From the IMG/VR virus record IMGVR_UViG_3300006163_000001: a DNA stretch of 64,000 bases, one strand, 5' to 3'. Below the pieces are notes generated by a model, which was given only the letters and a program-made list of their open reading frames with translations, made no database searches and was not told where the DNA came from. The DNA is from a virus. Shown here piece by piece: positions 14,097 to 37,100 of the stretch (the first letter of the stretch is position 1; every line of letters begins with the position of its first letter). Both the position numbers and the translations under genes were made by a program.

Positions 14097-14735
14097 GTGG
14101 AACTCGTCGGCACCTGGACCGGCAAAACCGCATGCCTCCTTCAGGAGGCCATGCGAATGACGAATGAGGCGTTCGCCGAACGCCTCGGGATCTCCACCCG
14201 GACGATCACTCGGTGGCACGCCAACCCCGAGATGATCCACCGGACCGAGGTTCAACAGATCCTGGACATCGCATACGAGGAGGCGGACGAAACGGTGCAC
14301 CGGCGGTTCGCGCTCCTACTGCGCCCCGCAGAGCCGCGCATGGAAGCGCAGGCGCTGCGGGTAGCGATAGCCGTCGTGCTGCGAGGAGACGATGTGCTGC
14401 TGGTCTGCCGCCGAGGGGACGGCGAGCTGCGCTGGCAGTTCCCCGCTGGCATGGTCAAGCCCGGAGGTGTCGGCGAGACCGTCGCCGTTCAGGAAACCCA
14501 CGGCGAGACCGGCGTGCACTGCACGATCCGCCAGCACCTCGGAGAACGCATCCACCCGGTAACCGGCGTCATCGCCGAATACCACCTCTGCGACTACCTC
14601 GCCGGCGACGCCACGAACCGTGACTCGCTGGAGAACGTGGACGTGACGTGGGTTCCCCGCGCCGCGGTCACGCGCTTCATTCCGCAGGACCAGATCTACC
14701 CGCCAATTCTGAGCGCCTTGGAGGCAGCTGCATGA
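14097..14735 (+). CDS. XRE-type HTH fused to a Nudix-fold domain with a degenerate Nudix box
   Basis: GTG preceded by GGGAG. HTH segment NEAFAERLGISTRTITRW. Nudix-box region GMVKPGGVGETVAVQETHGETGV lacks three consensus catalytic residues. Confidence 0.8.
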   Translation: MELVGTWTGKTACLLQEAMRMTNEAFAERLGISTRTITRWHANPEMIHRTEVQQILDIAYEEADETVHRRFALLLRPAEPRMEAQALRVAIAVVLRGDDVLLVCRRGDGELRWQFPAGMVKPGGVGETVAVQETHGETGVHCTIRQHLGERIHPVTGVIAEYHLCDYLAGDATNRDSLENVDVTWVPRAAVTRFIPQDQIYPPILSALEAAA

Positions 14736-15142
14736 CCGAGACGACGACTGAGAAGCCGGGCATTTCCGCCGCCATCATCGTGAGCGACGGGCGTGTGCTC
14801 ATGGTCAGGCGCCGCGTCTCCGAGGGCGAGTTGATGTGGCAGTTCCCGGCGGGCGCCATCGAGCCGGGCGAGGCCGCGGTGGACGCGGCCGTGCGCGAGA
14901 CAGGCGAGGAGACGGGACTGACGGTGAAGGCGATCCGTCTGCTCGGCGAGCGCATCCACCCCAAGACCCACCGTCTGATGTCCTACACGGCTTGCGAGGT
15001 GGTGGATGGCGAGGCGCGCGTCGCGGACGACGAGGAGCTCGACGCGATCACCTGGGCCGCACACTCCGAGCTTCCCGAACTGGTGCCCTACGGCCTGTTC
15101 GGCCCCGTCCAGGAGTACCTCGACGAGGTGCTGCCGCACTGA
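14732..15142 (+). CDS. Nudix hydrolase (canonical Nudix box)
   Basis: ATGA overlap with the upstream gene and GGAGG RBS. GAIEPGEAAVDAAVRETGEETGL fits GX5EX7REUXEEXGU. Confidence 0.85.
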   Translation: MTETTTEKPGISAAIIVSDGRVLMVRRRVSEGELMWQFPAGAIEPGEAAVDAAVRETGEETGLTVKAIRLLGERIHPKTHRLMSYTACEVVDGEARVADDEELDAITWAAHSELPELVPYGLFGPVQEYLDEVLPH

Positions 15143-15296: not shown

Positions 15297-15611
15297 ATGA
15301 ACACCTTACTGTGCAAGGCTGCCCACGCGCCTGCGTCATACGCCACAGTCGGCCTGACGCCCGACCGCGTGCTCGACACGCCGCTGCCTGATCTGCTCGC
15401 CGAGCTGGACGTCGAGATCGTGGCCAGCTCGATCACCGACCGCGACTTCTTCGGCGCGGTCGTACAGCGCAAGAGCGGCGAGACGTACCTGTCCATGCCG
15501 GTCGGCCGTAGCGAGCTGGAGCACGACACGGTCGCCCGCTACCTCATCGCGCAGGCCTTCGATGTGGGGCTGCCGCAGTTGCCGGCGCCGTTCGTGACGG
15601 CCGAGATTTGA
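15297..15611 (+). CDS. hypothetical protein (104 aa)
   Basis: ATG preceded by GAAGAGG. Its stop overlaps the TTG of the next listed ORF. Confidence 0.6.
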   Translation: MNTLLCKAAHAPASYATVGLTPDRVLDTPLPDLLAELDVEIVASSITDRDFFGAVVQRKSGETYLSMPVGRSELEHDTVARYLIAQAFDVGLPQLPAPFVTAEI

Positions 15612-15625
15612 GCCGGGGAGCAGAC

Positions 15626-16735
15626 ATGCCTGCCTTTCCTGTTTCACCGAACACGGTGCTGGCCAACGCGCTCAGTTGCGCCGAGGACGTGCTGACGCCT
15701 CGTATCCGCACCGCCGAGCCGGAGCGGATCGTGTTCGTGGTGGGCACGCAGATCAACGGCGTTCCGCACCTCGGTACTTCGCTGGTGCAGTCTCTGACGT
15801 TCGCTGCCGCGGGCCGAGTCCGCGAGCGCTTCGGCATCCCTGTCGAGGTGGTGTTTGGCGCGCTCGACAACGCGCCGCACGAGATCGTCGTGGATCCGGT
15901 GTCGGGGCACCGGTACCAGCGGGCCTACGCGCACGCGCTCGGCGAGGATGCTCTCGCCGGCCAGGTCGAGGAGCTGTATCGGCCGCTGTTTGAGGCTCTG
16001 TCCGAGCGGTTGTCGATCCCGTACTCGATCGAGCTGTACTCGCGGCAGCAGGCCGACGGGCACTTCCGGCAGACGTGGCTGCGTGCTCACCGCCGCATCG
16101 ACGCTGCCCGCTGGTGGCTGGACCCGGCGCACGGCACTCCGCATGTCCGTGTGCCATGCACTGAGCCGGGCTGCGGGTGGGCCGAAAAGTACGCCGACCG
16201 CACCCGCATCCTGCTGGGCGACGAGCACGCCCTGGTGCACGCTGTCTGCCTGCATCACGGCCCATACGAGGTCACCATCACCCTGGGCGGGGGCGGGTAT
16301 CTCGATCTCGCGACGCTGTACCGGAACCTCGTGAAGGAGCTCGCGGCGACCGCGGACCGCGACCGGCTGTCCGTCATGGTGAAGGGTGGCGACTGGGTGT
16401 TCGGGTCGACTCTGGTCGACAACGCCCTGGCCGCAATCGGGCTTACGGCCGGCCAGCTGCCAACGCGGCTGTTCTGTCCGCAGGTCGTCACGGACACCGG
16501 GGCGAAACTGTCCAAGTCCCTGATCCGCGAGGGGCGCGCGTCGTTGCCCGCTGGCTCCGCGCCGTGGATGCTCGATACCCGACTGTGGCCGGGGTCGTTG
16601 TCTGAGTACGCCGATCGGCTGTTGGAGATGGCCGCAGTGTTCTTCAGCGATCCTCGGCATTTTTTCCGTTCGTATTCGGCCGGAGAGCTCGGCCGTCTGA
16701 TGGCCCATTCGACAAGGAGCGTCACGACCCTATGA
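15626..16735 (+). CDS. class-I aminoacyl-tRNA-synthetase-like catalytic-domain protein (class-I LysRS-like), no recognisable anticodon-binding domain
   Basis: ATG preceded by GGGGAG. HIGH-like motif NGVPHLGT, KMSKS-like motif GAKLSKS, and a Cys/His insertion CTEPGCGW...VCLHHG. Only 369 aa. Confidence 0.7.
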   Translation: MPAFPVSPNTVLANALSCAEDVLTPRIRTAEPERIVFVVGTQINGVPHLGTSLVQSLTFAAAGRVRERFGIPVEVVFGALDNAPHEIVVDPVSGHRYQRAYAHALGEDALAGQVEELYRPLFEALSERLSIPYSIELYSRQQADGHFRQTWLRAHRRIDAARWWLDPAHGTPHVRVPCTEPGCGWAEKYADRTRILLGDEHALVHAVCLHHGPYEVTITLGGGGYLDLATLYRNLVKELAATADRDRLSVMVKGGDWVFGSTLVDNALAAIGLTAGQLPTRLFCPQVVTDTGAKLSKSLIREGRASLPAGSAPWMLDTRLWPGSLSEYADRLLEMAAVFFSDPRHFFRSYSAGELGRLMAHSTRSVTTL

Positions 16736-17088
16736 GCACCACCAGGACCGCCCGTAGACACGAACTCAACCTGTACCGCCGCTATTTCGAGCTGGTCGCG
16801 GCGGGCCGCAAGTCGATCGAGGTACGGGTTCGGTATCCGCATCTCGCGGACATGGCGGCGGGCGACGTGATCCGCTTTCGGATCAAGGGTACCGACGAGA
16901 CGTGCGACGTGCTCGTGAAGCGGGTGACTGCTTACGACGGCTTCGAGGCGCTGCTCGACGGCGAGGGCCCGGCGAACGTGAACCCGGCGGCGGGCCGCGA
17001 GGAGCAGCTTGCGAACATTCGCGGGATCTACCCGCCGGAGAAGGAGGCGCTCGGAGCCCTCGCAATCGAGATCGAACTACTCGAATAG
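16732..17088 (+). CDS. ASCH (PUA-like fold) domain protein
   Basis: ATGA overlap with the upstream gene. LNLYRRYFELVAAGRKSIEVRV...GDVIRF...VKRVTAY is typical ASCH architecture. Confidence 0.75.
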   Translation: MSTTRTARRHELNLYRRYFELVAAGRKSIEVRVRYPHLADMAAGDVIRFRIKGTDETCDVLVKRVTAYDGFEALLDGEGPANVNPAAGREEQLANIRGIYPPEKEALGALAIEIELLE

Positions 17089-17143: not shown

Positions 17144-17179
17144 AAGCGGCCGGACGGGGCTCATTCCGTCCGGCCGCTT
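17144..17179 (+). terminator. strong stem-loop terminator closing the plus-strand cassette
   Basis: AAGCGGCCGGACGG-ggctcatt-CCGTCCGGCCGCTT, 14-bp perfect stem, A-run before and T-run after. Confidence 0.75.
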
Positions 17180-17332: not shown

Positions 17333-17677
17333 GTGTTGATAGTCCGCCGCTCGAAGCTGCGTAAGGGTTTTTCGCAGCCTCCGAACGAGATGGTGTTCGA
17401 CGAGCGACTGAGCATGCTGGCCAGGATGGTTCTGGTCGAGATCATTGCGAGGCCGCCCGGCTGGCAGACGAATGCGCAGCAGATGTGGGAGAAGGCGTAC
17501 CGGAACCGTGGCGCGCGAGCCGAGGGCAAGCGCGCCTACCGGACAGCGTTCGCAGAGCTGGAGGAGTACGGCTACATGACGCGGGAGACCAAGAAGATTC
17601 CTGCCGGAGAGCCTGGTGGGGGCGGCTTCGTCACGGTACTCACCGCATACGACCTTCCTCGCAAAGCAGACAATTAG
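17333..17677 (+). CDS. winged-helix DNA-binding protein (replication-initiator/DnaD-N-like HTH)
   Basis: Pattern GFSQPPNEMVFDERLSMLARMVLVEI...AFAELEEYGYMTRE. Start (GTG 17333) is uncertain. Weaker GC3 bias than neighbouring genes. Confidence 0.6.
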   Translation: MLIVRRSKLRKGFSQPPNEMVFDERLSMLARMVLVEIIARPPGWQTNAQQMWEKAYRNRGARAEGKRAYRTAFAELEEYGYMTRETKKIPAGEPGGGGFVTVLTAYDLPRKADN

Positions 17678-17782: not shown

Positions 17783-19441
17783 CCTCGCGCTTTCATGAGG
17801 TGGCCTGTCCGCAGGCTGATCAGAAACACAGAAAGTGCTCTTGACCTGCAACGATAGGACTTGCTGAGGGTCCTGTTGGCTGCGAGGGAAAGAGCACTTT
17901 CCGGGTGAGAGAGCCTATCGCGTCGTACCCGCGTGTCCGTGTCCAGGGAGACGGCCGCCAGGTGGTCTCGCAGGCTGGCTCGGTCCTGCTGGTGGAGACG
18001 GTCCGTAGAACCGGCCTCGACCAGGCGATATCCGCGGCGCTGGCACCGTGGCGCAAATCCCGGGCCGTCCATGATCCGGGGAAGATCCTCCTGGACGTCG
18101 CACTGGCGGTCGCGCTGGGCGGGGACTGCCTGGCCGATGTCGGCATGCTGCGGGCCGAGCCCGCCGTGTTCGGGCCGGTCGCCTCCGACCCGACGGTCTC
18201 CCGCCTGGTCGACACCCTTGCAGCCTCCGGAGAGAAAGCTCTGCGGGCGATCCGTGCCGCGCGGGCCGAAGCACGCCAGTGGGCCTGGCAGTTGGCCGAC
18301 GGGAAAGCGCCCGATGCGGGCAGGGCGGTGACCGTCGATCTCGACGGGGTGCTGGTGATCGCGCACTCGGACAAGGAGGACGCCGCACCGACGTGGAAGA
18401 GAACCTACGGTCACCACCCGCTGATGGGGTTCGTCGACCACGGACCGGGCGGCACCGGTGAGCCGGTGGCGGCCCTGCTCAGGCCGGGGAACGCGGGATC
18501 GAACACGGCCGCCGACCACATCACCGCCACCCAACTGGCCCTGGCTCAACTGCCGAAGAAGTACCGGCGCGGACGCCAGACTCTGATACGCACCGACTCC
18601 GCGGGCGGCACCCACGACTTCGTCGCCTGGCTCGCCCAGCGAGGACGGTGGCTGTCCTACTCGGTCGGCATGGTGATCACGGACACGATCCACCAGCACG
18701 TGCTGAAGGTTCCGGCGTCGGCCTGGACGCCCGCCGTCGAGGCCGACGGGGAGATCCGTGACGGCGCCTGGGTCGCCGAACTCACCGGCGATGTCCTGGA
18801 CGGCTGGCCGAAGGGCATACGGCTGATCGTCAGGAAAGAACGACCGCACCCTGGAGCTCAGTTGAGGCTCACGGACGCGGACGGCATGCGGCTGACCTGT
18901 TTCGCCACCAACACCTCCGGCCGGCCGATCGCCGAACTCGAGCTCCGTCACCGGCTGCGGGCCCGGGCCGAGGACCGCATCCGGGCTGCCCGGGCCACCG
19001 GCCTGCGGAATCTCCCTTTGCACCGCACCGCCCAGAACCGGATCTGGCTGGAGATCGCCCAGATCGCACTGGACCTGCTGGCCTGGATGCCGATGCTCGC
19101 ACTGACCGGCACGGCCAGGCTCTGGGAGCCCCGCCGACTGCGGCTCCGTCTTTTCACCACGGCCGGACAACTCGTGAACACCGGCCGTCGGCGGATCCTC
19201 CGCCTGGCCCGGCACTGGCCCTGGACCAGCCACATCACCACAGCTCTCGAGCGGCTCGCACTCCTGCCGAACCCCGGCTGACCAACGGATTCCCGTCCCT
19301 ACGACAGCAGCTCAACACTCGGAGCAGTGGAACCCGGCGCCACCCCGAGGCGACACTCGGGCCCTGGGCCTGCACAGCCTTCGCCCACGGCACGAAAACG
19401 GTCCACCGACTCCGTCGGCGGACCGTCACGAAACTTCGAGG
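17783..19441 (+). mobile_element. IS1380-family insertion sequence (1659 bp) with 4-bp target-site duplication
   Basis: Imperfect terminal IRs CCTCGCGCTTTCATGAGG / CCTCGAAGTTTCGTGACG (rc). CTAA direct repeats at 17779-17782 and 19442-19445. Single transposase ORF. Confidence 0.85.
17905..19281 (+). CDS. IS1380-family (DDE) transposase
   Basis: 458 aa with the characteristic N-terminus ...VQGDGRQVVSQAGSVLLVETVRRTGLD and overall family resemblance. A 12-bp IR (17831-17842 / 17890-17901) lies just upstream of the GTG. Confidence 0.9.
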   Translation: MREPIASYPRVRVQGDGRQVVSQAGSVLLVETVRRTGLDQAISAALAPWRKSRAVHDPGKILLDVALAVALGGDCLADVGMLRAEPAVFGPVASDPTVSRLVDTLAASGEKALRAIRAARAEARQWAWQLADGKAPDAGRAVTVDLDGVLVIAHSDKEDAAPTWKRTYGHHPLMGFVDHGPGGTGEPVAALLRPGNAGSNTAADHITATQLALAQLPKKYRRGRQTLIRTDSAGGTHDFVAWLAQRGRWLSYSVGMVITDTIHQHVLKVPASAWTPAVEADGEIRDGAWVAELTGDVLDGWPKGIRLIVRKERPHPGAQLRLTDADGMRLTCFATNTSGRPIAELELRHRLRARAEDRIRAARATGLRNLPLHRTAQNRIWLEIAQIALDLLAWMPMLALTGTARLWEPRRLRLRLFTTAGQLVNTGRRRILRLARHWPWTSHITTALERLALLPNPG

Positions 19442-19537
19442 CTAATACGGATCTACCAAACCTGCTGGCTAGCAATATTCGGGGGCGCAGCCCGGCCTCA
19501 GTGCGTGCGTGCGCGCGAGGCGAACGAAAGGAACCCG

Positions 19538-19822
19538 ATGATGAAGAAGATCGTTCGCGTGGAGCCGAGCATCCTCGACAGCGTGCTGCGGGACCCGTTC
19601 GAACCGATGACTTACTTCCCGAACGAGCTGATCCACCGACGAGACGTGAGCCTTGCGGCGCTCGGGCTGCTACTGGAACTGGCGGCAACCGAAGGCGACT
19701 TCGACGTCGAGGCCGCGCGGGCGCAGGAGTTGAAGCGGCGGGCTACGGGCCTTGAGCCGGAAGACGTCGACGAGTTGCTCAGCGAGCTGGAGGCGGCCGG
19801 CTACATCACCGTCGGCGAGTGA
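19538..19822 (+). CDS. hypothetical winged-helix-like protein (94 aa)
   Basis: ATG preceded by AAAGGAA. C-terminal ELLSELEAAGYITVGE resembles a wHTH wing. Confidence 0.55.
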   Translation: MMKKIVRVEPSILDSVLRDPFEPMTYFPNELIHRRDVSLAALGLLLELAATEGDFDVEAARAQELKRRATGLEPEDVDELLSELEAAGYITVGE

Positions 19823-24477: not shown

Positions 24478-25472
24478 CACGCGGCCACCCCCAGCGCCGG
24501 CGCAGTGGCCGCCTGGGCGAGCGCTGCGGCGAGCGGGACCGGGCAGGCGTTCCCACATTGCTGCGGGATGTCGTTGCCGCTCCACGGCCAGTCGGCGGGG
24601 AAGCCCTGCAGCAGTCCGGCCTCCGACGGGGTGAGCCGCGGGAGTTCCCGGCCGTCGAGGTCGACAAGCCGCAGCCGGCTGATCTTCCCGGTGACGGTGA
24701 AGGCGGGTTCGAGGTGTGTGCGCCGGCCGCGGTTGCGGGGGTCGCCGCCGGTGCCGTAGTTGGAGATCACCGTGAACGGGCCGCGATGCGGAAGGACGTC
24801 GGCCATGGACCGCCACGGCAGCAGACGGACGTCTCCCGCGTCCTGGGCGATCCCGCGGCGGTACGGGCGATGCGTCGGCTCCGGCAGTCGGGCCTCACCG
24901 ACGAGGCGGGCGACGAGAACAGCCCGGCGGCGGGTCTGCGGCACCCCGAACTGCTCGGTGCGCAGAATCCCGGTGGCCACCGAGTAGCCCTCGGCGCGCA
25001 GGACTTCCGCGTAGGCGTTCCACACCTGCTGCACCTGCTGCACCTGCTCCAGCACAACCGCCTCGTAGGGGCGGCCGGCGTCGGCGGCCTCAAGGGCCCA
25101 CCGCAGCGGCTCCAGGACGAGCCCGGTGCGCTCGTCCTCGAAATCCTTCAGCGCCTGGGCGATGCCTTTCCGGGCGGCGAGCATCTGCGCCAAACCGAGG
25201 ACGACATCAAGGGCCTTCCTTCCCCGCCCTATGCCACCAACAGAGAACGGCTGGCACGGCGGGGAGCCGATGAGGTCGGTGGCGTCCGGGAAGTCGGCTG
25301 GCCCATAGGTGCGCACGTCGCCCTCGACGGTTCCCAGGCTGGCGGCCCTCCGCGTCTCGCAGGCGGCGTGATCGCGTTCGATGCCGACTACGCGGAGCCC
25401 GAGCCGGGTGGCCCCGACGTCCCAGCCGCCCGGACCTGCGAACAGGTCGACAGCCTGGCGCGCGCCCGGCAT
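24477..25472 (-). CDS. DNA (cytosine-5)-methyltransferase
   Basis: Motifs DLFAGPGGW (I), SPPCQPFS (IV), LEQV (VI), QTRRR (VIII) and QCGNACPVPLA (X). Confidence 0.9.
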   Translation of the reverse strand: MPGARQAVDLFAGPGGWDVGATRLGLRVVGIERDHAACETRRAASLGTVEGDVRTYGPADFPDATDLIGSPPCQPFSVGGIGRGRKALDVVLGLAQMLAARKGIAQALKDFEDERTGLVLEPLRWALEAADAGRPYEAVVLEQVQQVQQVWNAYAEVLRAEGYSVATGILRTEQFGVPQTRRRAVLVARLVGEARLPEPTHRPYRRGIAQDAGDVRLLPWRSMADVLPHRGPFTVISNYGTGGDPRNRGRRTHLEPAFTVTGKISRLRLVDLDGRELPRLTPSEAGLLQGFPADWPWSGNDIPQQCGNACPVPLAAALAQAATAPALGVAA

Positions 25473-26548
25473 CACGCCGCCACCTGCCCTGCCAGGAACG
25501 GCACGCCCGAGGCGGCACCCGCCACATGGGCGGCGAGCAGCGGGGGGACGGCGTTGGCTATCTGGAGGAACTGCTTCGACTGGCTGCCGTGGAACGGATG
25601 CGTGGGGCGGAAGCTCTGGAGGACGGCCGCCTCGGAGATGAGCAGGGGGCGCTTCTCCAGTGCGTCCTCGCCATCGACTTTGACCCACTCGTAGTCGTGG
25701 CGGGCGTGCCCGGCGACCAGGGTGGCCGCCGGCTGGTCGATGCGGCGCACAGTGGCGTTCGAGCGCTTGCTGTGCCGCAGCACCCACCAGGAACGGCACT
25801 TCTCGGTGAGCGCCCACGACGGCTCGTCGACGGGGAAGTTGTTGCCGCCGGGCGTCTTCCGGTCGCCACGGGTGTTGATCTCAAGGCCGGGCTCTAGGCC
25901 GAGAGCCTGGGCCATGGTCACCCAGGGCAGCCGGGTGAAGCCGAACAGGTCGGTTTCGGTGTTCTCGCCGTGTGTCGGGTCCGGTGCGCTCACATCCCGA
26001 ACGCGGGAGGCGATCAGGATGGCGCGACGCCGGGTCTGCGGAAGCCCGTAGTCGGCGGCGTTCAGCACGCCGGTCCACACGCTGTAGCCCCAGCCGCGGA
26101 GGATGCCCGCGTACTGCTTCCACAGGAGCAGCACGTCGGGGACCTGCTCCATGCACACCCATTCGGGCCGCAGATCATGCAGCCACCGCATCGGCTCCGC
26201 GGCCAGGATCGACTTGTCGTCCTTGCAGGCAGCCTTCACCCGGGCCCGGGTGTCACGGCCGTGGGCGAGATCTTCGACAGCCTGGTAGACGAGCGGCAGA
26301 TCGGCGAGACCGCCCAGCTTGCCGGCCCGCGAAAACGGGGTGCACACCGGCGAGGAGATCTTGCCTGTGATGCGGCCGCGGAACGGTGCGGTGGGGTACT
26401 GGGTGACGTCGCACCGGATGGTGAGGTGGCCGGCGGCGTGCGCGGTGCGGCAGGCGTCGGCGTCGAGCTCCAGGCCGACGTCGGTGAGGCCGAGCAGGCG
26501 GAGGCCTTCGGACCAGCCGCGCGGGCCGCTGAACAGGTCGACGATCAC
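25472..26548 (-). CDS. C5-MTase-like paralog with non-canonical motifs
   Basis: DLFSGPRGW (I), SSPVCTPFS (IV, Val-Cys rather than Pro-Cys), MEQV, QTRRR, IANAVPPLLA. GTG preceded by GGAGACGG. Confidence 0.8.
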   Translation of the reverse strand: MIVDLFSGPRGWSEGLRLLGLTDVGLELDADACRTAHAAGHLTIRCDVTQYPTAPFRGRITGKISSPVCTPFSRAGKLGGLADLPLVYQAVEDLAHGRDTRARVKAACKDDKSILAAEPMRWLHDLRPEWVCMEQVPDVLLLWKQYAGILRGWGYSVWTGVLNAADYGLPQTRRRAILIASRVRDVSAPDPTHGENTETDLFGFTRLPWVTMAQALGLEPGLEINTRGDRKTPGGNNFPVDEPSWALTEKCRSWWVLRHSKRSNATVRRIDQPAATLVAGHARHDYEWVKVDGEDALEKRPLLISEAAVLQSFRPTHPFHGSQSKQFLQIANAVPPLLAAHVAGAASGVPFLAGQVAA

Positions 26549-26616
26549 GCGCCGTCTCCGTTCCGGTGGTTGGTGTGCATGGGGTGCTCCTGGTGTCGCG
26601 GGTAGGGTGCGGGGCA

Positions 26617-26647
26617 GAGCTGGGCGCGTTAACGGCGCGCCCAGCTC
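26617..26647 (-). terminator. strong stem-loop just upstream of the MTase pair
   Basis: GAGCTGGGCGCG-ttaacgg-CGCGCCCAGCTC, 12-bp stem. Confidence 0.55.
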
Positions 26648-26695
26648 GCGGCGTTCACGGGGCGGGAATGGCGGGCCAGGTAGCGAGCTCGACGG

Positions 26696-26992
26696 TCATG
26701 CGACGCCTCCCGTCTGCGCGGCAACCCACGTCCGATGCGCGGCCCGGGCGTAGATCCCGGCAGCCAGCCACTCGGCGGTGGCCTTCGCTGCGGCTTCCTT
26801 GCGCCAGCCGCGCTTGGCCGGGCGGGGGTAGAGCTCGCCGTCCTGCCAGCTGTCGCCGCAGTGGCAGCAGGTGGTGGTGACGCCGTACCAGACCTCGTCC
26901 TGCCAGAGCATGCGGCGGCGGGTCTTGCAGGTGGGGCAGCGGAAGATCCGGCGGATGTTGTACCGGCGGGCACGGCAGACGATGACGTTCAC
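26696..26992 (-). CDS. zinc-ribbon protein (98 aa)
   Basis: GTG with GTGA overlap. CPTCK...CCHCG. Confidence 0.6.
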   Translation of the reverse strand: MNVIVCRARRYNIRRIFRCPTCKTRRRMLWQDEVWYGVTTTCCHCGDSWQDGELYPRPAKRGWRKEAAAKATAEWLAAGIYARAAHRTWVAAQTGGVA

Positions 26993-27276
26993 GCGGCTTC
27001 TCCTGTCTGAGGTCGGTGGGTGGCGCGGCTGTTGGGGTTGCCGCCGCATCGGGCGCACGTGCACTGGTCGGCGGGCGGGGTGGGGCCGGTGACGGCGGTG
27101 CCGAGCGGCCAGCCGCCGGTGTGGGCGATCCGGTAGCCCGGTGACGGCACTGCGGCCAGGGTCGGCTTCGGCTTGGCCGTCTCGGGCCGCTGCACCGCGT
27201 TCACGAGGCCGAGCAGGTAGTTCTTCAGGTCGCCCTGCTGGCGCATGACGGCGATGTCTTCGATCTCGGGATTCAT
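26989..27276 (-). CDS. hypothetical protein
   Basis: 95-aa ORF that overlaps the DnaB stop. Confidence 0.6.
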   Translation of the reverse strand: MNPEIEDIAVMRQQGDLKNYLLGLVNAVQRPETAKPKPTLAAVPSPGYRIAHTGGWPLGTAVTGPTPPADQCTCARCGGNPNSRATHRPQTGEAA

Positions 27277-28640
27277 CAGGGGGCCGCCATATCGACGAAC
27301 TGGGCAAAGTGGAGTTGGGCAGCGACCGTCACGGTGCCGATCTGGCCGCCGCGATGCTTGTCGACGATCAGGTCGGCTTCGCCGGCCCGCGGGGACTCGC
27401 GCTCGTAGGCGTCGTCGCGGTGGAGGAGGATGACGATGTCGGCGTCCTGCTCGATGGAGCCGGATTCGCGAAGGTCGGATTTGGTGGGCCGCTTGTCCTG
27501 GCGCTGTTCGGGCCCGCGGTTGAGCTGCGCCAGGATGATCACGGTGATGCCGAATTCGCGGGCGAGGAGCTTGATGCCGCGGCTGAGCTTCGACACCTCG
27601 TTCTGCCGGTTCTCCGCCTTGGGCGCGGTCATCAGCTGGAGGTAGTCGACGATGACGAGGCGCAGCCCGTCGGTTCGGACGTGCTGGCGGACCTTGGCGC
27701 GCAATCCGGGCAGGGTCAGGCTGGACACGTCGTCGATGAACAGGGGGGCTGCGGCGATGCGCTGTCCGGCTTCGGCGGCACGGACCACGCCGGCGTCGTC
27801 AACGATGCCCTGCTTGAGGTGGTGCAGGGCGATGCGGGCTTCGGCGCACAACAGCCCGTTGGCGATCTCGTCTTCGCTCATCTCCAGGGTGTGGAACAGG
27901 CTGGCGATGCCGTTCTTGACGGCGGCGGCTCGGGCGAACCCGGCCGCGATCGTCGACTTGCCCATGGCGGGCCGAGCGCCGATGACGACCATCTGGCCGG
28001 GCGCCCATCCGCCGCAGAGCAGGGCGTCGAGGTCCATGAAGCCGGTCGGGATGCGGTCTTCTTTGGAGGGCGGGGTGATGCAGCGTTCCAGGGCGGCGCC
28101 GATCAGTTCGCGGACGTGCTTGGCCTGGCGTGCCGCGTCGGGCTTTGCGACGCCGTCGAGGGCGTCCTGGAGGGCGGCGACGTCGGTGTCGGGGTCGAAG
28201 GCGGCGCTGTTGCCGCGACTGGCGGCGTCGTGGCCGAGGGCGACGATGCGGGCGGCGACGGCCTTGTCGGCGACCTTCTTGGCGTACCAGGCGGCGGCGC
28301 CGGGCTGGGCGTAGTCGTAGATCTGGCGGAGGTCTTGTTCGAGGAGGGGGCGGGCGACCATGCGGCCGTCGGCGTGCCAGGTCTCGAGCTGGCGGGCTAC
28401 GGGCAGGTAGCGGATTTCGCCGTCGCGGAAGCTGGTGCGGAGTTCTTCGACGGCGTACCAGACCCACCGGTACTGCTCGGTGCTGATGTCGGCGGGGTCG
28501 AAGCCTTCTGCGGCGAGTTCGTCGACGACGTCGGGGCGGGCCATGGCGGAGGCGATGAGGACTTTCTCGGCCTCCTGGTCGCGGGGCATTTTGGGGCCGA
28601 TGTCTTCGATGGCGTCGGCCCAGTCGATCTCGGTGGTCAC
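27276..28640 (-). CDS. dnaB: replicative DNA helicase DnaB
   Basis: GTG with GTGA overlap. N-terminal PRDQEAEKVLIAS, Walker A GARPAMGKST, Walker B LVIVDYLQLM, and ILAQLNRGPEQR. Confidence 0.9.
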   Translation of the reverse strand: MTTEIDWADAIEDIGPKMPRDQEAEKVLIASAMARPDVVDELAAEGFDPADISTEQYRWVWYAVEELRTSFRDGEIRYLPVARQLETWHADGRMVARPLLEQDLRQIYDYAQPGAAAWYAKKVADKAVAARIVALGHDAASRGNSAAFDPDTDVAALQDALDGVAKPDAARQAKHVRELIGAALERCITPPSKEDRIPTGFMDLDALLCGGWAPGQMVVIGARPAMGKSTIAAGFARAAAVKNGIASLFHTLEMSEDEIANGLLCAEARIALHHLKQGIVDDAGVVRAAEAGQRIAAAPLFIDDVSSLTLPGLRAKVRQHVRTDGLRLVIVDYLQLMTAPKAENRQNEVSKLSRGIKLLAREFGITVIILAQLNRGPEQRQDKRPTKSDLRESGSIEQDADIVILLHRDDAYERESPRAGEADLIVDKHRGGQIGTVTVAAQLHFAQFVDMAAP

Positions 28641-29362
28641 GCGGCCACACCCCGGCGGCGGTCGTCGCCCTTGAAGACGACGCGCTGGCACATCTCGATG
28701 AGCCGGCTGGTGACCCGGTCGCCGAGGCGTTCGGCGATCTCCTTCGGTAGCAGGTTGGAGGTGATGAGCGTCGGCATGTGGTGCTCGTACCGGTAGTTGA
28801 TCAGCCGGAAGTTGACCTCTTCGGTGAACTCGGTCGGCTTGCGGTCGGCGCCGAGGTCGTCGATGAGGAGGATGCGGGCGTCGCGGTAGTGGCGGAACTC
28901 GGCTTCGGAGTCGACGCCGTGGCGGGGGCGCAGGGCGGCGTACAGGTCGGCGGTGGTGGTGACGCCCCAGCGGGCGGCGACGCCGGTGAGGGCGAGTTCG
29001 CGGATGGCACCGTAGGCCTGGTGCGTCTTGCCGGTGCCGGTCGGGCCGAGCAGCAGCAGGGAGCGGCCTTCGAAGACGGAGGCGACGGGGGCGCCGCGGC
29101 TGGCCTGGTCCTCGCGGGCGGTGGCGACGAGTTCCTGCAGCCAGGTGTGGATCTCGGGGCTGTCGACGGACGCGGCCCGGTAGTGGGCGGGTACGAGCTT
29201 GGCGGCCTCGACGATGGAATAGCGGGCGATGTTGGCCGGGTGATACGGGTCGCTGTCACCGGAGTTGAGCCAGTCGAGGCTGACGCCGCGGGCGGCGAGC
29301 AGCTGCTCAAGGTGGTAGCGCTTCGGGTTGATCGGCGGAGTCCACTGCACGGTCAGTTCCAT
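28637..29362 (-). CDS. DnaC/IstB-like AAA+ helicase loader
   Basis: Walker A GPTGTGKTH and Walker B LLIDDLG. Confidence 0.85.
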   Translation of the reverse strand: MELTVQWTPPINPKRYHLEQLLAARGVSLDWLNSGDSDPYHPANIARYSIVEAAKLVPAHYRAASVDSPEIHTWLQELVATAREDQASRGAPVASVFEGRSLLLLGPTGTGKTHQAYGAIRELALTGVAARWGVTTTADLYAALRPRHGVDSEAEFRHYRDARILLIDDLGADRKPTEFTEEVNFRLINYRYEHHMPTLITSNLLPKEIAERLGDRVTSRLIEMCQRVVFKGDDRRRGVAA

Positions 29363-30249
29363 CCCTGGTCGTAGTCGGAGTCGTTCTCGGGGTTGCGGTG
29401 CGGGCCGCTGGGCGGCTGGGTGTCGATCGGGTCGTCGTAGCTGCCGGCGTCGAGCCAGGTGCTGGAGTACGGCGTGAATTGCTGGTCTTCGTTGCGGCGG
29501 GCGAAGGCGTAGGCCTTGGCGGCTTTGACGATGTGGCCGGGATCGGCTCCGCGGTCGAGAGCGTCACGCCATGCCTGCTTGGTCTTCTGCGGCTTCATGG
29601 GCCGCGGGTAGCAGACCCAGAACTCGGCGAAGACGGGCCAGTGGTAGTCGCGCTCTTCGTCCGTAGCGGCTGCGCGTGACGAGTCGCGGGCGCCGTAAGA
29701 GTCTTTTGGTTCAGCTCTTGGTTCTGTCTTTTGGTTTGGGTGACGTCCACGTCGCCCCTCCTGCGACGTGGACGTCACCCCATCCGCGACGTCGGCGTCA
29801 CCCCTGACGTCCACGTCACCCCTGACGTCCACGTCACCCGTCAAATCGGACGCGACATCTTCTGAGCTGGGCTTCTTTTTCCCGCCGCGCCGACGGGATG
29901 ACGCCAGCGTCACCCGTGACGTCCGCGTCACCTCATCTGCACTGGCGCGGCCTCCCGGAACGGTGCGCTCGAGAGCGAGGTCGTAGACCTCCGGACGCTT
30001 CCCCTCGGGAAGGTGTGCAGCCTTCGACTGGTCGCCGAGGCGGATGAAGCCGAGCTCTCGCAGCTGCTTGAGGTCACGCTGGACGGACCGCTCGGCCTTG
30101 CAGGTGTACGCGGCCAGCCGGGCCACGGACGGGTACGCCCCGCGGCCCTTCTTGTCGGCGTGACGCGCAAGCCCGCTCAGCGTGGCGACGAGCTGCGCCG
30201 GCATCGGCGGAGCCTTTTCGAGTGCCCAGTCCATGGCCTCAGTGCTCAC
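29353..30249 (-). CDS. replisome organiser / replication initiator (N-terminal wHTH, repeat-encoding linker)
   Basis: N-terminus MDWALEKAP...PSVARLAAYTCKAERSVQRDLKQLRELGFI. Its position upstream of the loader and helicase fits this role. The linker reads DVDVRGDVDVRGDADV. Confidence 0.75.
   Translation of the reverse strand: MSTEAMDWALEKAPPMPAQLVATLSGLARHADKKGRGAYPSVARLAAYTCKAERSVQRDLKQLRELGFIRLGDQSKAAHLPEGKRPEVYDLALERTVPGGRASADEVTRTSRVTLASSRRRGGKKKPSSEDVASDLTGDVDVRGDVDVRGDADVADGVTSTSQEGRRGRHPNQKTEPRAEPKDSYGARDSSRAAATDEERDYHWPVFAEFWVCYPRPMKPQKTKQAWRDALDRGADPGHIVKAAKAYAFARRNEDQQFTPYSSTWLDAGSYDDPIDTQPPSGPHRNPENDSDYDQGWN
29701..29840. repeat. iteron / inverted-repeat cluster inside the organiser gene (candidate origin)
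   Basis: GTCTTTTGGTT x2 (29701, 29726). 16-bp perfect IR GTGACGTCCACGTCGC / GCGACGTGGACGTCAC (29740-29778). 18-bp unit CGTCACCCCTGACGTCCA x2.5 (29796-29840). Confidence 0.65.
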
Positions 30250-30408
30250 TTCGGGTCTCTTCTCAAGGAGGGGTGTCTCTGCTGGTCATTCGCTGTTTTG
30301 AGGCAGCCCTCATGGGGGCGATGCGGTTCGTGTTGCCAGTGATTCGCTCGCCATTGAATTGTACAACGCGACGGACATTACATCCACGCTCATGTGTATG
30401 CTGGTCTC

Positions 30409-30708
30409 ATGAGTGAGTCCGGGATCCGACAGCTGGGCGTCTCCGAAGCCCGCGCGAACATGACCGAGGTCATCGCCGAAGTGCGCCTGCTCGGCCATCC
30501 CGTGGCGCTCACTCGACGGGACAAGCCGCAGGCCATGCTGATTTCCATGGACCGCTGGAAGGCTGCCGTCCTTGACGCGGAGATCCGGCCCATCTACGAC
30601 GACCTCGTGCGCCGGCTGAACAAGCTCGCCAACGACCCCGAGTTCGCCTCGGTCCTTGAGCGCAAGGACGCGACGCTCCTCGAAGTGCTTGAGAGCGGCA
30701 CTCTCTGA
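30409..30708 (+). CDS. Phd/YefM-family antitoxin-like protein (solitary)
   Basis: MSESGIRQLGVSEARANMTEVIAEV...VALTRRDKPQAMLISMDRW. Opposite strand to its neighbours, with no adjacent toxin ORF. Confidence 0.7.
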   Translation: MSESGIRQLGVSEARANMTEVIAEVRLLGHPVALTRRDKPQAMLISMDRWKAAVLDAEIRPIYDDLVRRLNKLANDPEFASVLERKDATLLEVLESGTL

Positions 30709-30734
30709 CTCCACGCCCCTCCTCCCTTCCTCCT

Positions 30735-30755
30735 GGGCCCCGCTGTGCGGGGCCC
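30735..30755. terminator. bidirectional stem-loop
   Basis: GGGCCCCGC-tgt-GCGGGGCCC, 9-bp stem. Confidence 0.6.
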
Positions 30756-30765
30756 TCGTCGTGTC

Positions 30766-31638
30766 CTAGGCGGCGAGCTCGGCGTCTGCCGGTTCGTCGG
30801 CGGGCTGATGGCCGCGGCGTGCCTGGTGGGCCCTCTTGGCGCGTTCACGGAGCACGACGTTGAGCTGGTCGGTGGTGTACTTCTCGTTGGCGCCGAGCTG
30901 CTTGGCGATGGACGGCACGGATTCACCGAGCAGGTAGAGGTGTTCGATCTCCGCTTTGCGCAGGGAGTCTCGGCCGTTCTTCGCGGCCGGCTTGTAGGTG
31001 GGCAGCCGTTCGGGCTTCGCGGTGGGGTCGTCGATGTTTCCGTCCCAGGCGAAAGGGCCGCTCCAGCCGCGGCGGCGCGCGAGATAGGGGGCGCGACGGG
31101 AGGGGCCTGGCTGCCAGCGGAGCTTTTCGTAGAGGGCTGCCATGCCCTGGGCGACGGCGGCGCTGACGGTGGTCGGCTCGTGGTAGAGGATCCGGCCGAG
31201 GTGGTTGGTCGCCATGGGCACGCCTTCGGCGATGGCGTAGATCGGGTAGCCGATGGCGTGGAGGGCTTGGCCGCGGCGGATGGTGCCGGTGCTGTCTACG
31301 CGCGCGTTCATGGGGGTGCCGGTCGGGCCTGGTGAGCGCAGGATGCGGGCGGCGACGCGTGGTGCGATGGTGGGCTGCCCGCGGAGGAGCTTGGAGATGT
31401 CGCCGGATTTCTTGCCGACGGCGTCTCCGATCTGCGTCTGGCTGTAGCCCTGGTCGACCCAGTCCTGCAGGCGGGCGCGGACGGGCGTTGCGTCGACGCG
31501 CACGGGCTGGCGGACGGTTCGCATTCGGTACTGCTTGCAGTAGCGCTTGTTGGCGTTGATGCAGGGCAGGCAGCGGCAGCCGCGCATGTAGCGGGGGCGC
31601 TTTCCATGCGGCGGCAGCGGCTTGGCGGCGGTGGTCAT
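30766..31638 (-). CDS. DNA-binding protein with two HTH-like segments
   Basis: ATG preceded by GGGGAGA. CRCLPCINANKRYC, then GYSQTQIGDAVGKKSGDISKLLRG and SVPSIAKQLGANEKY. Confidence 0.7.
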   Translation of the reverse strand: MTTAAKPLPPHGKRPRYMRGCRCLPCINANKRYCKQYRMRTVRQPVRVDATPVRARLQDWVDQGYSQTQIGDAVGKKSGDISKLLRGQPTIAPRVAARILRSPGPTGTPMNARVDSTGTIRRGQALHAIGYPIYAIAEGVPMATNHLGRILYHEPTTVSAAVAQGMAALYEKLRWQPGPSRRAPYLARRRGWSGPFAWDGNIDDPTAKPERLPTYKPAAKNGRDSLRKAEIEHLYLLGESVPSIAKQLGANEKYTTDQLNVVLRERAKRAHQARRGHQPADEPADAELAA

Positions 31639-31937
31639 TTCTCCCCCGTTCGGTGTTGGTTGGTGGCGTTGAGGATTTGCAGGCAGGTGAGGAGGTCGTC
31701 GCTGTTGCTGCCGGGGGCGGTGTCGTGGGCGGGCGGCGCGTCGCACAGCAGCCGCCAGGCTTTGGCCCGGTCGCGGCGTTCCTGACGCCGGGCTTCGAGC
31801 CGCTGCCAGATCCGTCCAACACCCCAGAGGGCGGTGCCGCCGGCGACGGTGATGCCGATGCCGGGCCCGTAGGTGTCGATGGCATGTTGCAGGCCGGTGA
31901 GCCCGTTGGTGACGGCGTCGATCTGTTCGGGGGTCAC
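31635..31937 (-). CDS. hypothetical protein (1 TM)
   Basis: 100-aa ORF with ATGA overlap. Confidence 0.6.
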   Translation of the reverse strand: MTPEQIDAVTNGLTGLQHAIDTYGPGIGITVAGGTALWGVGRIWQRLEARRQERRDRAKAWRLLCDAPPAHDTAPGSNSDDLLTCLQILNATNQHRTGEK

Positions 31938-32038
31938 GTCCGCCTCCCGGTGCGTGCGGGGCGGACGATGAGGGCGAAGACGACGGCGGCGACGCCGATG
32001 GTGGCGGCGAAGCAGGCGAGGAAGAGGGCGGCGGTCAT
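31934..32038 (-). CDS. tiny membrane protein (34 aa; not in ORF track)
   Basis: MTAALFLACFAATIGVAAVVFALIVRPARTGRRT. ATGA overlap with the MTase stop. Confidence 0.4.
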   Translation of the reverse strand: MTAALFLACFAATIGVAAVVFALIVRPARTGRRT

Positions 32039-32787
32039 GCGGCGCCTCCGGCGAGCGTCAGCGGTATGGCGGCGAGCCGGAGGGCGGCGGCCTCGCAGTA
32101 GTCCTCGCGGGCTTCGATGCCGATGGCGCGTCGGCCCGCGGCTTGGGCGGCGTCGAGGGTGCTGCCGGATCCGGCGAACGGGTCGATGACGAGGCCGCCT
32201 TCGGGGCATGCGTAGCGGATCAGTTGGTCGAGGATCTCGACGGGTTTCTCGGTGGGGTGGCGCCGCTGGTAGCGGACGGATGCCGCCTGGATGACGGAGC
32301 GGGCGAGGCGGGTTCCGTCGTCGACATAGGTGTGCGCGCCGATCTTCCCGGTGTGTGGGGTGCGGGAGTCGCGTCCGCGGGCGGATTTGTCGGGTCCCCT
32401 GTAGGCGGTGCGCGGGGTGTCGTGGTGGATGCCCCGCCAGTCGCCGCGGTACCAGTGGGTGACGTGTTCGTGGACGCGGCGGAAGCGGTCGCGGGCGAAG
32501 CCGGAGCCGTTGCGCTTCTCCCACACCACGTCTTGGCTGAGCTTCCAGTCGGTGAACTCGCCTGCCCGGTCGAGGAACATGCGCATGCTGCCGAAGCACC
32601 ACATGCTGCTCGCGGCTGTGGCGGCCAGGGTGGGCCATCCGTCGGGCCAGACGTCCCAGCCGAGGCTGGTCGACTGGTACGGCGGGTCGGCGACGATCAG
32701 GTCCGCGGTGATGCCGAGCGCGGGGAGTATCTCCCGCATGTCGCCGAGGTACAGCTGGACGGTGTCGTCCTCGTAGTAGGCCTCCAT
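32035..32787 (-). CDS. DNA N6-adenine / N4-cytosine methyltransferase (beta-class motif order)
   Basis: IVADPPYQ (motif IV) lies N-terminal and DPFAGSGST (motif I) C-terminal. Confidence 0.9.
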   Translation of the reverse strand: MEAYYEDDTVQLYLGDMREILPALGITADLIVADPPYQSTSLGWDVWPDGWPTLAATAASSMWCFGSMRMFLDRAGEFTDWKLSQDVVWEKRNGSGFARDRFRRVHEHVTHWYRGDWRGIHHDTPRTAYRGPDKSARGRDSRTPHTGKIGAHTYVDDGTRLARSVIQAASVRYQRRHPTEKPVEILDQLIRYACPEGGLVIDPFAGSGSTLDAAQAAGRRAIGIEAREDYCEAAALRLAAIPLTLAGGAA

Positions 32788-33195
32788 CTACGCGGCCCTC
32801 CGCTCGTCGGCGCGGGCTTGCCGCCGTGCGGCGCGTTCGTCGCGGCGTCGGGCGGCGACCATCTCCCGCATGGCGGGCGGTACGCCGATCCACACGTGGA
32901 CCAGGCTGTGGTGGGCGCGGACGCTGGTTCCGGCCGTGTGGTGGCGGATGATGCCCGCGTTCTGCAGGCGGATCGGCAAGCCGCCCCATTGGCTCTGCGG
33001 CTTCGGCGGATCGGGCAGCCGGTGCTTGCTAGAGATCTCGTCGATGGTGAAGGGCTGACGGGTGTCGGCGGCGGCCACGTAGTACGGCCAGACTTCGTCG
33101 ACCCACGCCTCGTAGTCGTCGATGACGCGGCGGGTGGTAGCGGGGGCCGGGGCGGTGAGCTCGGTGCCGTCGAAGGCGGGCTGGATGTGGGTCAT
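32788..33195 (-). CDS. hypothetical protein
   Basis: 135-aa ORF. Confidence 0.7.
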   Translation of the reverse strand: MTHIQPAFDGTELTAPAPATTRRVIDDYEAWVDEVWPYYVAAADTRQPFTIDEISSKHRLPDPPKPQSQWGGLPIRLQNAGIIRHHTAGTSVRAHHSLVHVWIGVPPAMREMVAARRRDERAARRQARADERRAA

Positions 33196-33524
33196 GACGC
33201 TGCCTCCTCGGGCGTGCCGTGCTGCTCGAGCTCGGCGTCGGTCATGAGCGGGTGCGGGATCCGGCCGGTACGCAGGACGTCGCGCAGGTCGGCGGCGGAG
33301 GTGCGGAGGGTGTGGTTGCGCTCGATCCGCGCGGACTCGGCGGGTGTGACCTCGTCGACGAACAGGCCCTCACTCGGGTCGGGCTTCGGGCCGGCGATCT
33401 GCTCCCAGCGGTCGGCGAGTGTGGTGAGCGTGGCGCGAAGGTCTGTCTCGGAGTGGGTGGGCAGGTCGTAGCCGGGCCCGGTGTGGGTAAGGCCCGCGAG
33501 GACGCGGCGCCAGACGTTGGTCAT
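33192..33524 (-). CDS. hypothetical protein
   Basis: 110-aa ORF with RBS AAGGAGA. Confidence 0.7.
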   Translation of the reverse strand: MTNVWRRVLAGLTHTGPGYDLPTHSETDLRATLTTLADRWEQIAGPKPDPSEGLFVDEVTPAESARIERNHTLRTSAADLRDVLRTGRIPHPLMTDAELEQHGTPEEAAS

Positions 33525-33542
33525 CTGTGGTCTCCTTGGAGT

Positions 33543-33569
33543 GGCCGGCCGCGCTGCCCGCGGCCGGCC
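33543..33569 (-). terminator. stem-loop
   Basis: GGCCGGCCGCG-ctgcc-CGCGGCCGGCC, 11-bp stem. Confidence 0.55.
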
Positions 33570-33584
33570 GTTCGCGTGTGCGGG

Positions 33585-34520: not shown

Positions 34521-34522
34521 GG

Positions 34523-35368: not shown

Positions 35369-35700
35369 GCGACACCGTCCAGCGGCATCGGGCGGGCGCA
35401 GGCCTCGCACAGGCCGGACGGCACGAACGGCCCGTCGTTCTGCTTGCAGCGGGTGCAGCGCCCAGCCGCGATGTCCTGCAGCCGGTCCACGCCGTCGGGG
35501 TCGTAGTGGATGGCGGTGATCGCGGCCACGTACTCGGGGAACCCGGCGGCCAGCCGGTCGAGGTTGGACGGGTCGGCGGTCCCCATGGCGGTGAGGAGTG
35601 CGGTGGTGAAGGAGCCGGCCTGGTAGCCGCCCTCGCGGCCGTAGTGGAACAGGACGTGCGCTGCGACGTCCGGCGGAATGGTGGGGCTGCTGGTGCTCAT
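35365..35700 (-). CDS. hypothetical protein with C-terminal CxxC...CxxC
   Basis: 111-aa ORF. Confidence 0.7.
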   Translation of the reverse strand: MSTSSPTIPPDVAAHVLFHYGREGGYQAGSFTTALLTAMGTADPSNLDRLAAGFPEYVAAITAIHYDPDGVDRLQDIAAGRCTRCKQNDGPFVPSGLCEACARPMPLDGVA

Positions 35701-35729
35701 GTGTCCTCGTTTCTGGGTGCACTAAGGGC

Positions 35730-35773
35730 GGGCCCGCTCCGCTGGGCGGGGGGTGCTCCGGCGGAGCGGGCCC
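35730..35773 (-). terminator. stem-loop
   Basis: GGGCCCGCTCCGC ... GCGGAGCGGGCCC, 13-bp stem with an 18-nt loop. Confidence 0.5.
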
Positions 35774-37079: not shown

Positions 37080-37100
37080 AGCTGGGGTCTCCTGGGCGGG

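Follow-up and report, generated by a model that had tools for sequence, protein, structure and literature searches.

An aminoacyl-tRNA synthetase-like catalytic core paired with an ASCH-domain protein on Streptomyces prophages and integrative elements

We analyzed a 64,000-nucleotide stretch of viral DNA (IMG/VR virus record IMGVR_UViG_3300006163_000001), referred to here as the window, which means the whole stretch at its full length. The subject of this analysis is a gene located at positions 15626 to 16735, whose product resembles the catalytic core of class I aminoacyl-tRNA synthetases (aaRSs), together with the ASCH-domain gene that follows it. The features of this locus are as follows.

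15626..16735, plus strand: aaRS-like core gene, 369 amino acids (aa), ATG start; stand-alone class I (subclass Ib-like) aaRS-type catalytic core, recognized from the open reading frame (ORF), a PHROG match and an AlphaFold2 (AF2) model searched with Foldseek
15615..15620, plus strand: Shine-Dalgarno-like GGGGAG, 5 nt before the ATG of the aaRS-like gene, read from the sequence
15764..15778, plus strand: HIGH-type motif P47-H48-L49-G50-T51 (ATP site), from alignment A2 (see below) and the ORF census; within VVGTQINGVPHLGT
16157..16258, plus strand: Cys/His knuckle C178, C183 ... C208, H211, in the connective peptide (CP), or acceptor-binding, insertion between the two Rossmann halves; peptides VPCTEPGCGW...VCLHHGPYEV
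16505..16519, plus strand: KMSKS-type loop K294-L-S-K297-S298; GAKLSKS at residues 292 to 298, peptide TGAKLSKSL
16732..17088, plus strand: ASCH-domain partner gene, 118 aa, Pfam ASCH match, immediately 3' of the aaRS-like gene
15297..15611, plus strand: 104-aa ORF directly 5' of the aaRS-like gene, with its stop 14 nt before the ATG; third-position GC content (GC3) 0.89
17144..17179, no strand assigned: GC-rich hairpin of 14 bp, 56 nt past the ASCH stop, terminator-like by a consensus-scan match only

The ORF at 15626 to 16735 is a genuine gene. Its homologues begin at the same methionine (ATG 15626), an alternative TTG start being present at 15608, and its GC content by codon position follows the Streptomyces coding pattern (GC3 of 0.83 and second-position GC of 0.50). 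The surroundings of the gene were compared across a set of 81 loci, consisting of 80 species genomes and the phage Picard, and the locus scans were based on an alignment of Streptomyces sequences (A1) and an alignment of the fused clade described below (A4). The 104-aa ORF upstream is not a conserved part of the aaRS-like/ASCH module, as it was present in just 3 of the 81 loci; family searches of its product gave no match. On the other side, the hairpin at 17144 to 17179 is likely to mark the end of the transcription unit.

To describe the conserved residues of the aaRS-like family, we used A2, a diverse alignment of 45 sequences reaching down to 23% identity. Residues P47, H48, G50, R233, D256, P285, G292, K294 and K297 are invariant in this alignment, and C178, C183, C208 and H211 are near-invariant. 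Both class I signatures were also found in every one of the 157 intact homologous ORFs from the fetched loci, the HIGH-type motif as PH[ILV]GT and the KMSKS-type loop as G[AGS]KLSKS, and the Cys knuckle (Cx2C or Cx4C ... Cx2H) was present in 156 of the 157. The Cys/His knuckle is presumed, from its sequence, to be a Zn site; Zn-bound GluRS structures ranked among the top structural matches, for the window protein as well as for a fused relative. The idea that the protein is a pseudo-enzyme was rejected because all of its catalytic motifs are invariant, in A2 as well as in the 157 ORFs.

Next, the family was compared with proteins of known structure. A search of the family profile against the PDB recovered GluRS with an E value of 0.0019, aligning the PHxGT region (PHVGT in GluRS) and the GxD...KLSK region, with the GxDW motif of the family placed on the RGED/EH element of GluRS; in the same search, class I LysRS was found with an E value of 0.45. 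Weak matches to PF01921 (class I LysRS) were seen in 9 of the 45 family members, the best at 8.8e-4, and the window protein itself gave no match to PF01921 even at E<=1. The AF2 model of the aaRS-like protein, which was built on A2, had a predicted local distance difference test score (pLDDT) of 94.3 and a predicted template modeling score (pTM) of 0.93. When this model was compared with the PDB using Foldseek, the best match was class I LysRS (1IRX; E value of 6e-9, template modeling score [TM] of about 0.5, approximately 306 columns), followed by GluRS, MetRS, BshC, GlnRS, CysRS, MshC and the C-terminal domain of PyrN (PyrN-C). Altogether, there were 123 structural matches in the PDB at E<=1e-3, and the best 50 of the 123 comprised 47 class I aaRSs and 3 aaRS-derived ligases. 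The independently modeled fused relative had the same top match (1IRX, E value of 1e-9) and the same ranking. Since LysRS is closest in structure and the motifs are GluRS-like (HxGT, KLSK), the accurate label for the protein is subclass Ib-like (LysRS-I/GluRS), as a member of neither family.

The first-pass annotation of this gene, made from the sequence alone, had described a class I LysRS-like catalytic domain with both signatures, a Cys/His insertion between them reminiscent of archaeal-type class I LysRS, and a C terminus too short for an anticodon-binding domain. The signatures, the insertion and the class I similarity are all borne out, with the ATP-site motifs intact and class I LysRS as the best structural match. 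There is likewise no room for an anticodon-binding domain, as the AF2 model contains three short helices only after KLSKS; the tail is, however, 71 residues long and not about 50, as had been estimated. A domain hidden from simple inspection was another point to consider. The models indicate that the aaRS-like protein has no anticodon-binding domain, hidden or otherwise, and nearly all full-length family members are 340 to 390 aa long. As seen in the fused relatives, the position of the anticodon-binding domain is where the ASCH domain starts.

The ASCH partner is a key feature of this system. Its ATG at 16732 overlaps the TGA of the aaRS-like gene (16733 to 16735) in an ATGA arrangement, which indicates translational coupling. 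The partner matched PF04266 with an E value of 4.8e-9 and 37.3 bits (cut-off of 21.2), and matched the PDB entries 2z0t, 1xne and 1s04 at 1.6e-9 to 3e-8. It contains an octapeptide of the GKER type (GxKxxExR), formed by G25-R-K27-S-I-E30-V-R32. An ASCH gene lies immediately 3' of the aaRS-like gene in 81 of the 81 loci, so that the linkage is stronger than the coupling that had first been noted at this one locus, and it is also linked in distant loci from metagenome-assembled genomes (about 45% identity). In a large actinobacterial clade that includes Pseudonocardiaceae, Nocardiopsis and others, the two proteins are naturally fused into one polypeptide of approximately 480 aa. Among the metagenome loci with room downstream, 58 of 63 had the ASCH domain fused or adjacent. 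Linkage to ASCH is thus obligate in this ASCH-linked clade of aaRS-like cores.

The octapeptide is strongly conserved. The G, K, E and R positions are invariant in 38 fused proteins, and GxKxxExR was found in 161 loci. A model of a fused relative (pLDDT of 88, pTM of 0.86) placed a linker of about 10 residues between the two parts, and its ASCH domain superposed on Pyrococcus PH0355 (2z0t) with a TM of 0.90 and a root mean square deviation of 1.6 Å. In addition, a second and divergent ASCH paralogue adjoins the pair in several nonactinobacterial loci, giving two ASCH genes per module (L082, 5589 to 5915; L083, 5395 to 5733; L088, 7520 to 7867; L187, 2752 to 3081; and L189, 5583 to 5912). It has recently been reported that 19 ASCH proteins, including members of the GKER subgroup, remove N4-acetylcytidine (ac4C) from tRNA and that the Lys/Glu dyad is essential for this activity (bioRxiv 10.64898/2026.02.27.708502). 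The specificity of the characterized ASCH proteins is for N4-acyl-cytidine, both free and in tRNA, and ac4C itself is written from acetate by TmcAL, an enzyme of the aaRS type (bioRxiv 10.64898/2026.02.27.708502).

The aaRS-like/ASCH pair is widely conserved and uncharacterized. A word-indexed search returned 719 homologues, mostly annotated as hypothetical proteins of Streptomyces, and an exhaustive search gave 325 clusters at 50% identity; close relatives of the aaRS-like protein were found in 323 species genomes. The aaRS-like protein corresponds to PHROG 35625, "tRNA synthetase" (1.5e-180), and the ASCH partner to phrog_19935 (2.4e-44). Some members of the family carry the database labels "tRNA synthetase" or "class I tRNA ligase family"; since databases already use such labels, recognition of the fold is not new. 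By contrast with these labels, our literature search found no published description of the family, of its coupling or fusion to ASCH, or of its operon partners.

To place the pair in its genomic setting, we examined the rest of the window and the neighborhoods of the homologous loci. The window is itself a mobile element; it encodes an integrase (44844 to 46169), a Gp3-like recombination directionality factor, DnaB, DnaN, two DNA methylases, an FtsK/DUF3631 protein and DpdA. Several of these belong to a replication/modification block on the minus strand (25472 to 38477) that contains a C5 DNA methylase, DnaB, an N6/N4 methylase, the Gp3-like recombination directionality factor, a full DnaN and a shorter DnaN-like ORF. 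A megablast search of positions 1 to 25000 of the window against phages gave no match. The aaRS-like/ASCH module lies within a plus-strand island that also carries two NUDIX genes. The further features discussed here are as follows.

14097-14735 and 14648-15142, plus strand: tandem NUDIX genes, the first with an N-terminal helix-turn-helix (HTH); the likely true start of the second is ATG 14732, overlapping the upstream stop
17905-19281, plus strand: intact DDE transposase of an insertion sequence (IS; DDE_Tnp_1_4, 4.7e-91), approximately 800 nt 3' of the module
56181-57854, minus strand: TROVE-domain (Ro60-like) protein (Pfam, 5.3e-17)

The IS looks like a recent insertion at this site, because the counterparts of the genes at 17333 to 17677 and 19505 to 19822 of the window directly adjoin each other in a close relative (L003). 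Both NUDIX proteins of the window matched the PADLOC candidate defense model PDC-S07 (5.2e-16 and 4.1e-7), and the aaRS-like and ASCH proteins matched none of the defense-system models in PADLOC-DB 2.0. Besides this window, a NUDIX gene was found near the pair in 9 of the 81 loci and beside a relative of 31% identity.

Across the loci, the genomic neighbors of the pair include relaxase, Rep, FtsK, DUF3631, XRE-type regulators, anti-sigma-like ATPases and a methyltransferase. The pair was also found on 11 viral contigs, and in the phage Picard it follows an XRE/DUF397 pair and is flanked by the lysis genes on one side and by the serine integrase on the other. Therefore, the pair is an accessory cargo of Streptomyces prophages and of integrative elements resembling actinomycete integrative and conjugative elements (AICE-like). 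Its expression probably takes place from the resident element, and it probably functions in host/phage conflict or in translational tuning. The recurrent neighbors are nucleotide-handling and nonobligate: in addition to NUDIX, genes for HAD and His-phosphatase proteins recur near the loci, and an AAA_28 P-loop kinase-like gene lies directly 5' in 46 of the 67 fused-clade loci, often with a conserved 301-aa protein. In the fused clade (L085, L098 to L103 and approximately 46 metagenome loci, such as L110, 4494 to 7452), the 301-aa protein, the AAA_28 protein and the fusion form a conserved three-gene operon. The Walker A motif of the AAA_28 neighbor is unusual, in that the residue after GGPSxGK is D or V rather than S/T. 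A PDB sequence search with this neighbor was uninformative, and family searches with the 301-aa protein gave no match.

Genes for tRNAs were also surveyed. A gene for tRNA-Gln, -Glu, -Glu or -Lys was present within approximately 2 kb of the pair in four of six distant chromosomal loci, in two of them directly 5' on the same strand. These are tRNA-Gln(CTG) in L082 (5508 to 5579), tRNA-Lys(TTT) in L190 (5000 to 5073), tRNA-Glu(TTC) in L083 (9101 to 9174) and tRNA-Glu(CTC) in L088 (8394 to 8468). Gln, Glu and Lys are also the amino acids handled by subclass Ib aaRSs. A rough estimate of the chance of such adjacency in four of six loci was about 5e-5 before any post hoc correction. The actinobacterial loci had just Ser, Val, Gly, Cys and Ala tRNAs nearby, which are probably integration sites. 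The 64-kb window contained no tRNA gene, nor did it match any Rfam family at the gathering score, and no tRNA gene lies beside the pair in Picard.

Altogether, a class I adenylate-forming fold with its ATP-site motifs, the lack of an anticodon domain, the obligate linkage to ASCH with its conserved dyad and the mobile-element context are established, and from here on we infer an adenylate chemistry, an acceptor and a biological role. We tentatively propose, giving it somewhat less than an even chance, that the core and the ASCH protein constitute an obligate two-part enzyme that uses ATP to acylate a cytidine-type base on tRNA or on a nucleotide. In the proposed mechanism, the core would bind ATP through PHLGT, KLSKS and a GGDW ribose motif, and it would bind a carboxylate, most likely that of an amino acid, to form an (amino)acyl-adenylate. 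The ASCH domain, which has a PUA-like fold, would occupy the place of the missing anticodon-binding domain, where it might present a cytidine-type amine as the acceptor or, alternatively, might hydrolyze or proofread the N-acyl product. The net outcome would be a cytidine-type base acylated at the expense of ATP, in tRNA or as a free nucleotide.

As to the substrates, the alpha-amino group is bound in class I enzymes by an acidic residue after the second strand. The aaRS-like protein has an acidic residue at this place, in LDNAP, and this residue would favor an amino acid as the activated carboxylate. For the acceptor, a free nucleotide is favored because of the kinase, NUDIX and phosphatase neighbors, and a tRNA is favored because of the tRNA neighbors and the retained CP knuckle. 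A more specific version may be imagined, in which the pair would be a writer joined to an ASCH acceptor, editing or eraser site for N4-aminoacyl-cytidine (e.g., lysyl or glutamyl) on Glu, Gln or Lys tRNAs or on cytidine nucleotides; it would act through an aminoacyl-adenylate, and prophages and integrative elements would employ it in conflicts, where translation or replication would be reprogrammed or poisoned. In this detail, we consider the proposal speculative and unlikely to hold as a whole.

Several observations weigh against an ATP-dependent acylation of cytidine. The ASCH enzymes characterized so far are hydrolases and not acceptor-binding modules (bioRxiv 10.64898/2026.02.27.708502), and there would be no point in joining a writer to an eraser unless editing or transfer takes place at ASCH. 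The similarity to solved structures is remote, with a TM of about 0.5 and 16 to 17% identity, and the aaRS-like protein, taken as a single sequence, matched no curated family in Pfam, NCBIfam, PADLOC or the PDB sequences; the family was detected only via PHROGs and by profile or structure methods. The tRNA-neighbor signal is post hoc, comes from six loci and is absent in the actinobacterial loci. Finally, a distant branch of the family (24 to 27% identity) has no ASCH and lies within an apparent small-molecule gene cluster; therefore, nucleoside chemistry is not common to the whole superfamily. Genes for an AdoMet_dc-type decarboxylase, an AlaDh_PNT dehydrogenase and a methyltransferase are linked in the loci of this branch (L087, 6001 to 11279; L104, 648 to 4402), and this context suggests that the branch may act in an amino-acid-derived small-molecule pathway.

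We then considered what else the pair might be. One alternative is a split minimal aaRS, in which the core would charge a tRNA 3' end (of the Lys, Glu or Gln type), with ASCH as a substitute RNA-binding module, so that the element gains a charging activity of its own. The CP insertion contacts the acceptor stem in GluRS, and its Cys/His knuckle is retained here; true aaRSs are the best structural neighbors, ASCH proteins bind tRNA, and the tRNAs beside four of the six distant loci are of the corresponding types. Nevertheless, LysRS-I, GluRS and GlnRS require tRNA for amino-acid activation, and the stem-contact and anticodon domains needed by subclass Ib enzymes are absent, as are tRNA genes accompanying the pair in Picard or in the window. 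Binding alone would also not need the strictly conserved ASCH Lys/Glu dyad, and on balance we find a split aaRS unlikely. Alternatively, the core might work in the manner of MshC, BshC and PyrN as an amide or ester ligase of small molecules, placing an amino acid onto a non-nucleoside metabolite, with ASCH as an accessory hydrolase (e.g., in resistance or maturation). The significant structural matches do include BshC (4wbd), MshC (8hfm) and PyrN-C (9l8v), and it is the AdoMet_dc, AlaDh_PNT and methyltransferase genes that accompany the distant, ASCH-less members. However, the ASCH-linked clade lies outside biosynthetic clusters and is found on prophages and AICE-like elements as a unit of two genes, and its fusion to a nucleoside-binding fold and its kinase, NUDIX and phosphatase neighbors point to nucleoside chemistry, which makes a metabolite ligase an improbable explanation as well.

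Two further possibilities keep the nucleotide or the modified base as the target of the activated intermediate. If the adenylate were attacked by a nucleotide, as in the Ap4A-type side reaction of aaRSs, the core would be a synthetase of a nucleotide signal or a dinucleoside polyphosphate, NUDIX would turn over the product and ASCH would be a ligand sensor. The NUDIX genes beside the pair in the window, in 9 of the 81 loci and beside the 31%-identity relative would fit this scheme, as would the PDC-S07 matches of the window NUDIX proteins. Yet, NUDIX occurs in a minority of loci only, the obligate partner is ASCH, and neither the conserved ASCH dyad nor the CP Cys knuckle is explained; we therefore regard such a synthetase as very unlikely. 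The other possibility goes back to the first-pass annotation, which had pointed to GluQRS as a precedent and to a DpdA-like gene in the same DNA. GluQRS (YadB), the textbook truncated subclass Ib paralogue, glutamylates queuosine, a 7-deazaguanine, in tRNA-Asp, and the aaRS-like protein might similarly aminoacylate a 7-deazaguanine base, either queuosine in tRNA or bases installed by DpdA in the DNA of the element. DpdA is indeed encoded at 420 to 1298 on the plus strand (Pfam PF23859, 5e-66), and local GAKLSK and GxD motifs are common to GluQRS and the aaRS-like family by hhalign. However, DpdA lies 14 kb from the pair, with oppositely oriented genes in between, and no DpdA homologue was found within 8 kb in any of the 80 genomic loci or anywhere in the Picard genome. 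The hhalign comparison of A2 with E. coli GluQRS gave a probability of 38.5% over 45 columns only, and GluQRS was found neither among the family-profile matches at E<=10 nor among the best 50 of the 123 structural matches; the characterized ASCH specificity is likewise for N4-acyl-cytidine and not for deazapurines. Membership in GluQRS was thus rejected by hhalign and by the profile and structure searches. The 7-deazaguanine link was rejected because DpdA does not co-occur with the pair in the 80 genomic loci (within 8 kb) or in Picard, because the GluQRS alignment is weak and because the window gave no tRNA or Rfam match, and we give an enzyme of this kind hardly any likelihood. The Y-like RNAs at 57.9 to 58.3 kb, which had been suggested as acceptors, are also unconfirmed, given that no Rfam match at the gathering score was obtained in the window.

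Truncated aaRS paralogues whose functions have been solved, such as GluQRS, TmcAL, MshC and the cyclodipeptide synthases, have each uncovered new chemistry. What is new here is a family with an intact predicted adenylate-forming site in which the anticodon-binding domain is replaced by ASCH, in trans or fused. The action of ASCH proteins on N4-acylcytidine in tRNA has just been shown, which makes the pair timely to study (bioRxiv 10.64898/2026.02.27.708502). If the proposed acylation of cytidine is correct, the pair would represent a new ATP-dependent nucleoside acylation, a partner writer for ASCH and a new kind of function among the cargo genes of Streptomyces phages and conjugative elements. 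Otherwise, the pair would still be a clean, testable two-gene unit in a cultivable phage/host pair (Picard and S. venezuelae).

Among the closest known counterparts is the overlapping gene pair gp28/gp29 of Streptomyces phage Picard, which shares 71% and 82% identity with the window proteins and is annotated as "tRNA synthetase" and "RNA-binding protein"; these names come from annotation, and our literature search found no functional study of either product. Among characterized enzymes, class I LysRS (Pyrococcus horikoshii 1IRX; PF01921, tRNA-synt_1f) shares with the window protein motifs of the HIGH and KMSKS types and a Rossmann core into which a CP module is inserted. In contrast to LysRS, the window protein, which is 16 to 17% identical to it, lacks the C-terminal anticodon-binding region, carries the motifs HxGT and KLSKS and is paired with ASCH. 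At the motif level, the PHxGT, GxD/E and KLSK elements of GluRS align with those of the aaRS-like family. GluQRS sets a precedent for a subclass Ib enzyme that lacks the anticodon domain and acylates a modified base, and it is in this sense an analogue of the proposed reaction; unlike GluQRS, the aaRS-like family is not associated with genes for queuosine or 7-deazaguanine, and we know of no ASCH partner of GluQRS. MshC/BshC and the C-terminal domain of PyrN are aaRS cores with non-tRNA acceptors, which ranked below LysRS-I and GluRS as structural matches. They have other insertions and no ASCH partner, unlike the ASCH-linked clade outside biosynthetic clusters.

TmcAL, to our knowledge, is not paired with ASCH either. 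Its Pfam family, which we take to be HIGH_NTase1/DUF795, was matched neither by the window protein nor by the 45 relatives (25 families listed), and TmcAL is absent from the best 50 of the 123 structural matches. The analogy is thus functional only: TmcAL combines the activation of a carboxylate with the acylation of cytidine N4, at C34 of tRNA-Met, and so makes the bond that ASCH enzymes hydrolyze (bioRxiv 10.64898/2026.02.27.708502). None of the literature that we searched described an ASCH protein joined to an adenylate-forming enzyme, whether by coupling or by fusion. The ASCH amidohydrolases, represented by E. coli YqfB, Thermus thermophilus TthASCH (2DP9), human EOLA1 and the ASCH domain of TRIP4, have the same fold as the partner protein and the same GKER octapeptide with its essential Lys/Glu. 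These known ASCH enzymes are stand-alone or are fused to HTH or other domains, unlike the partner described here, which is joined to an aaRS-like core.

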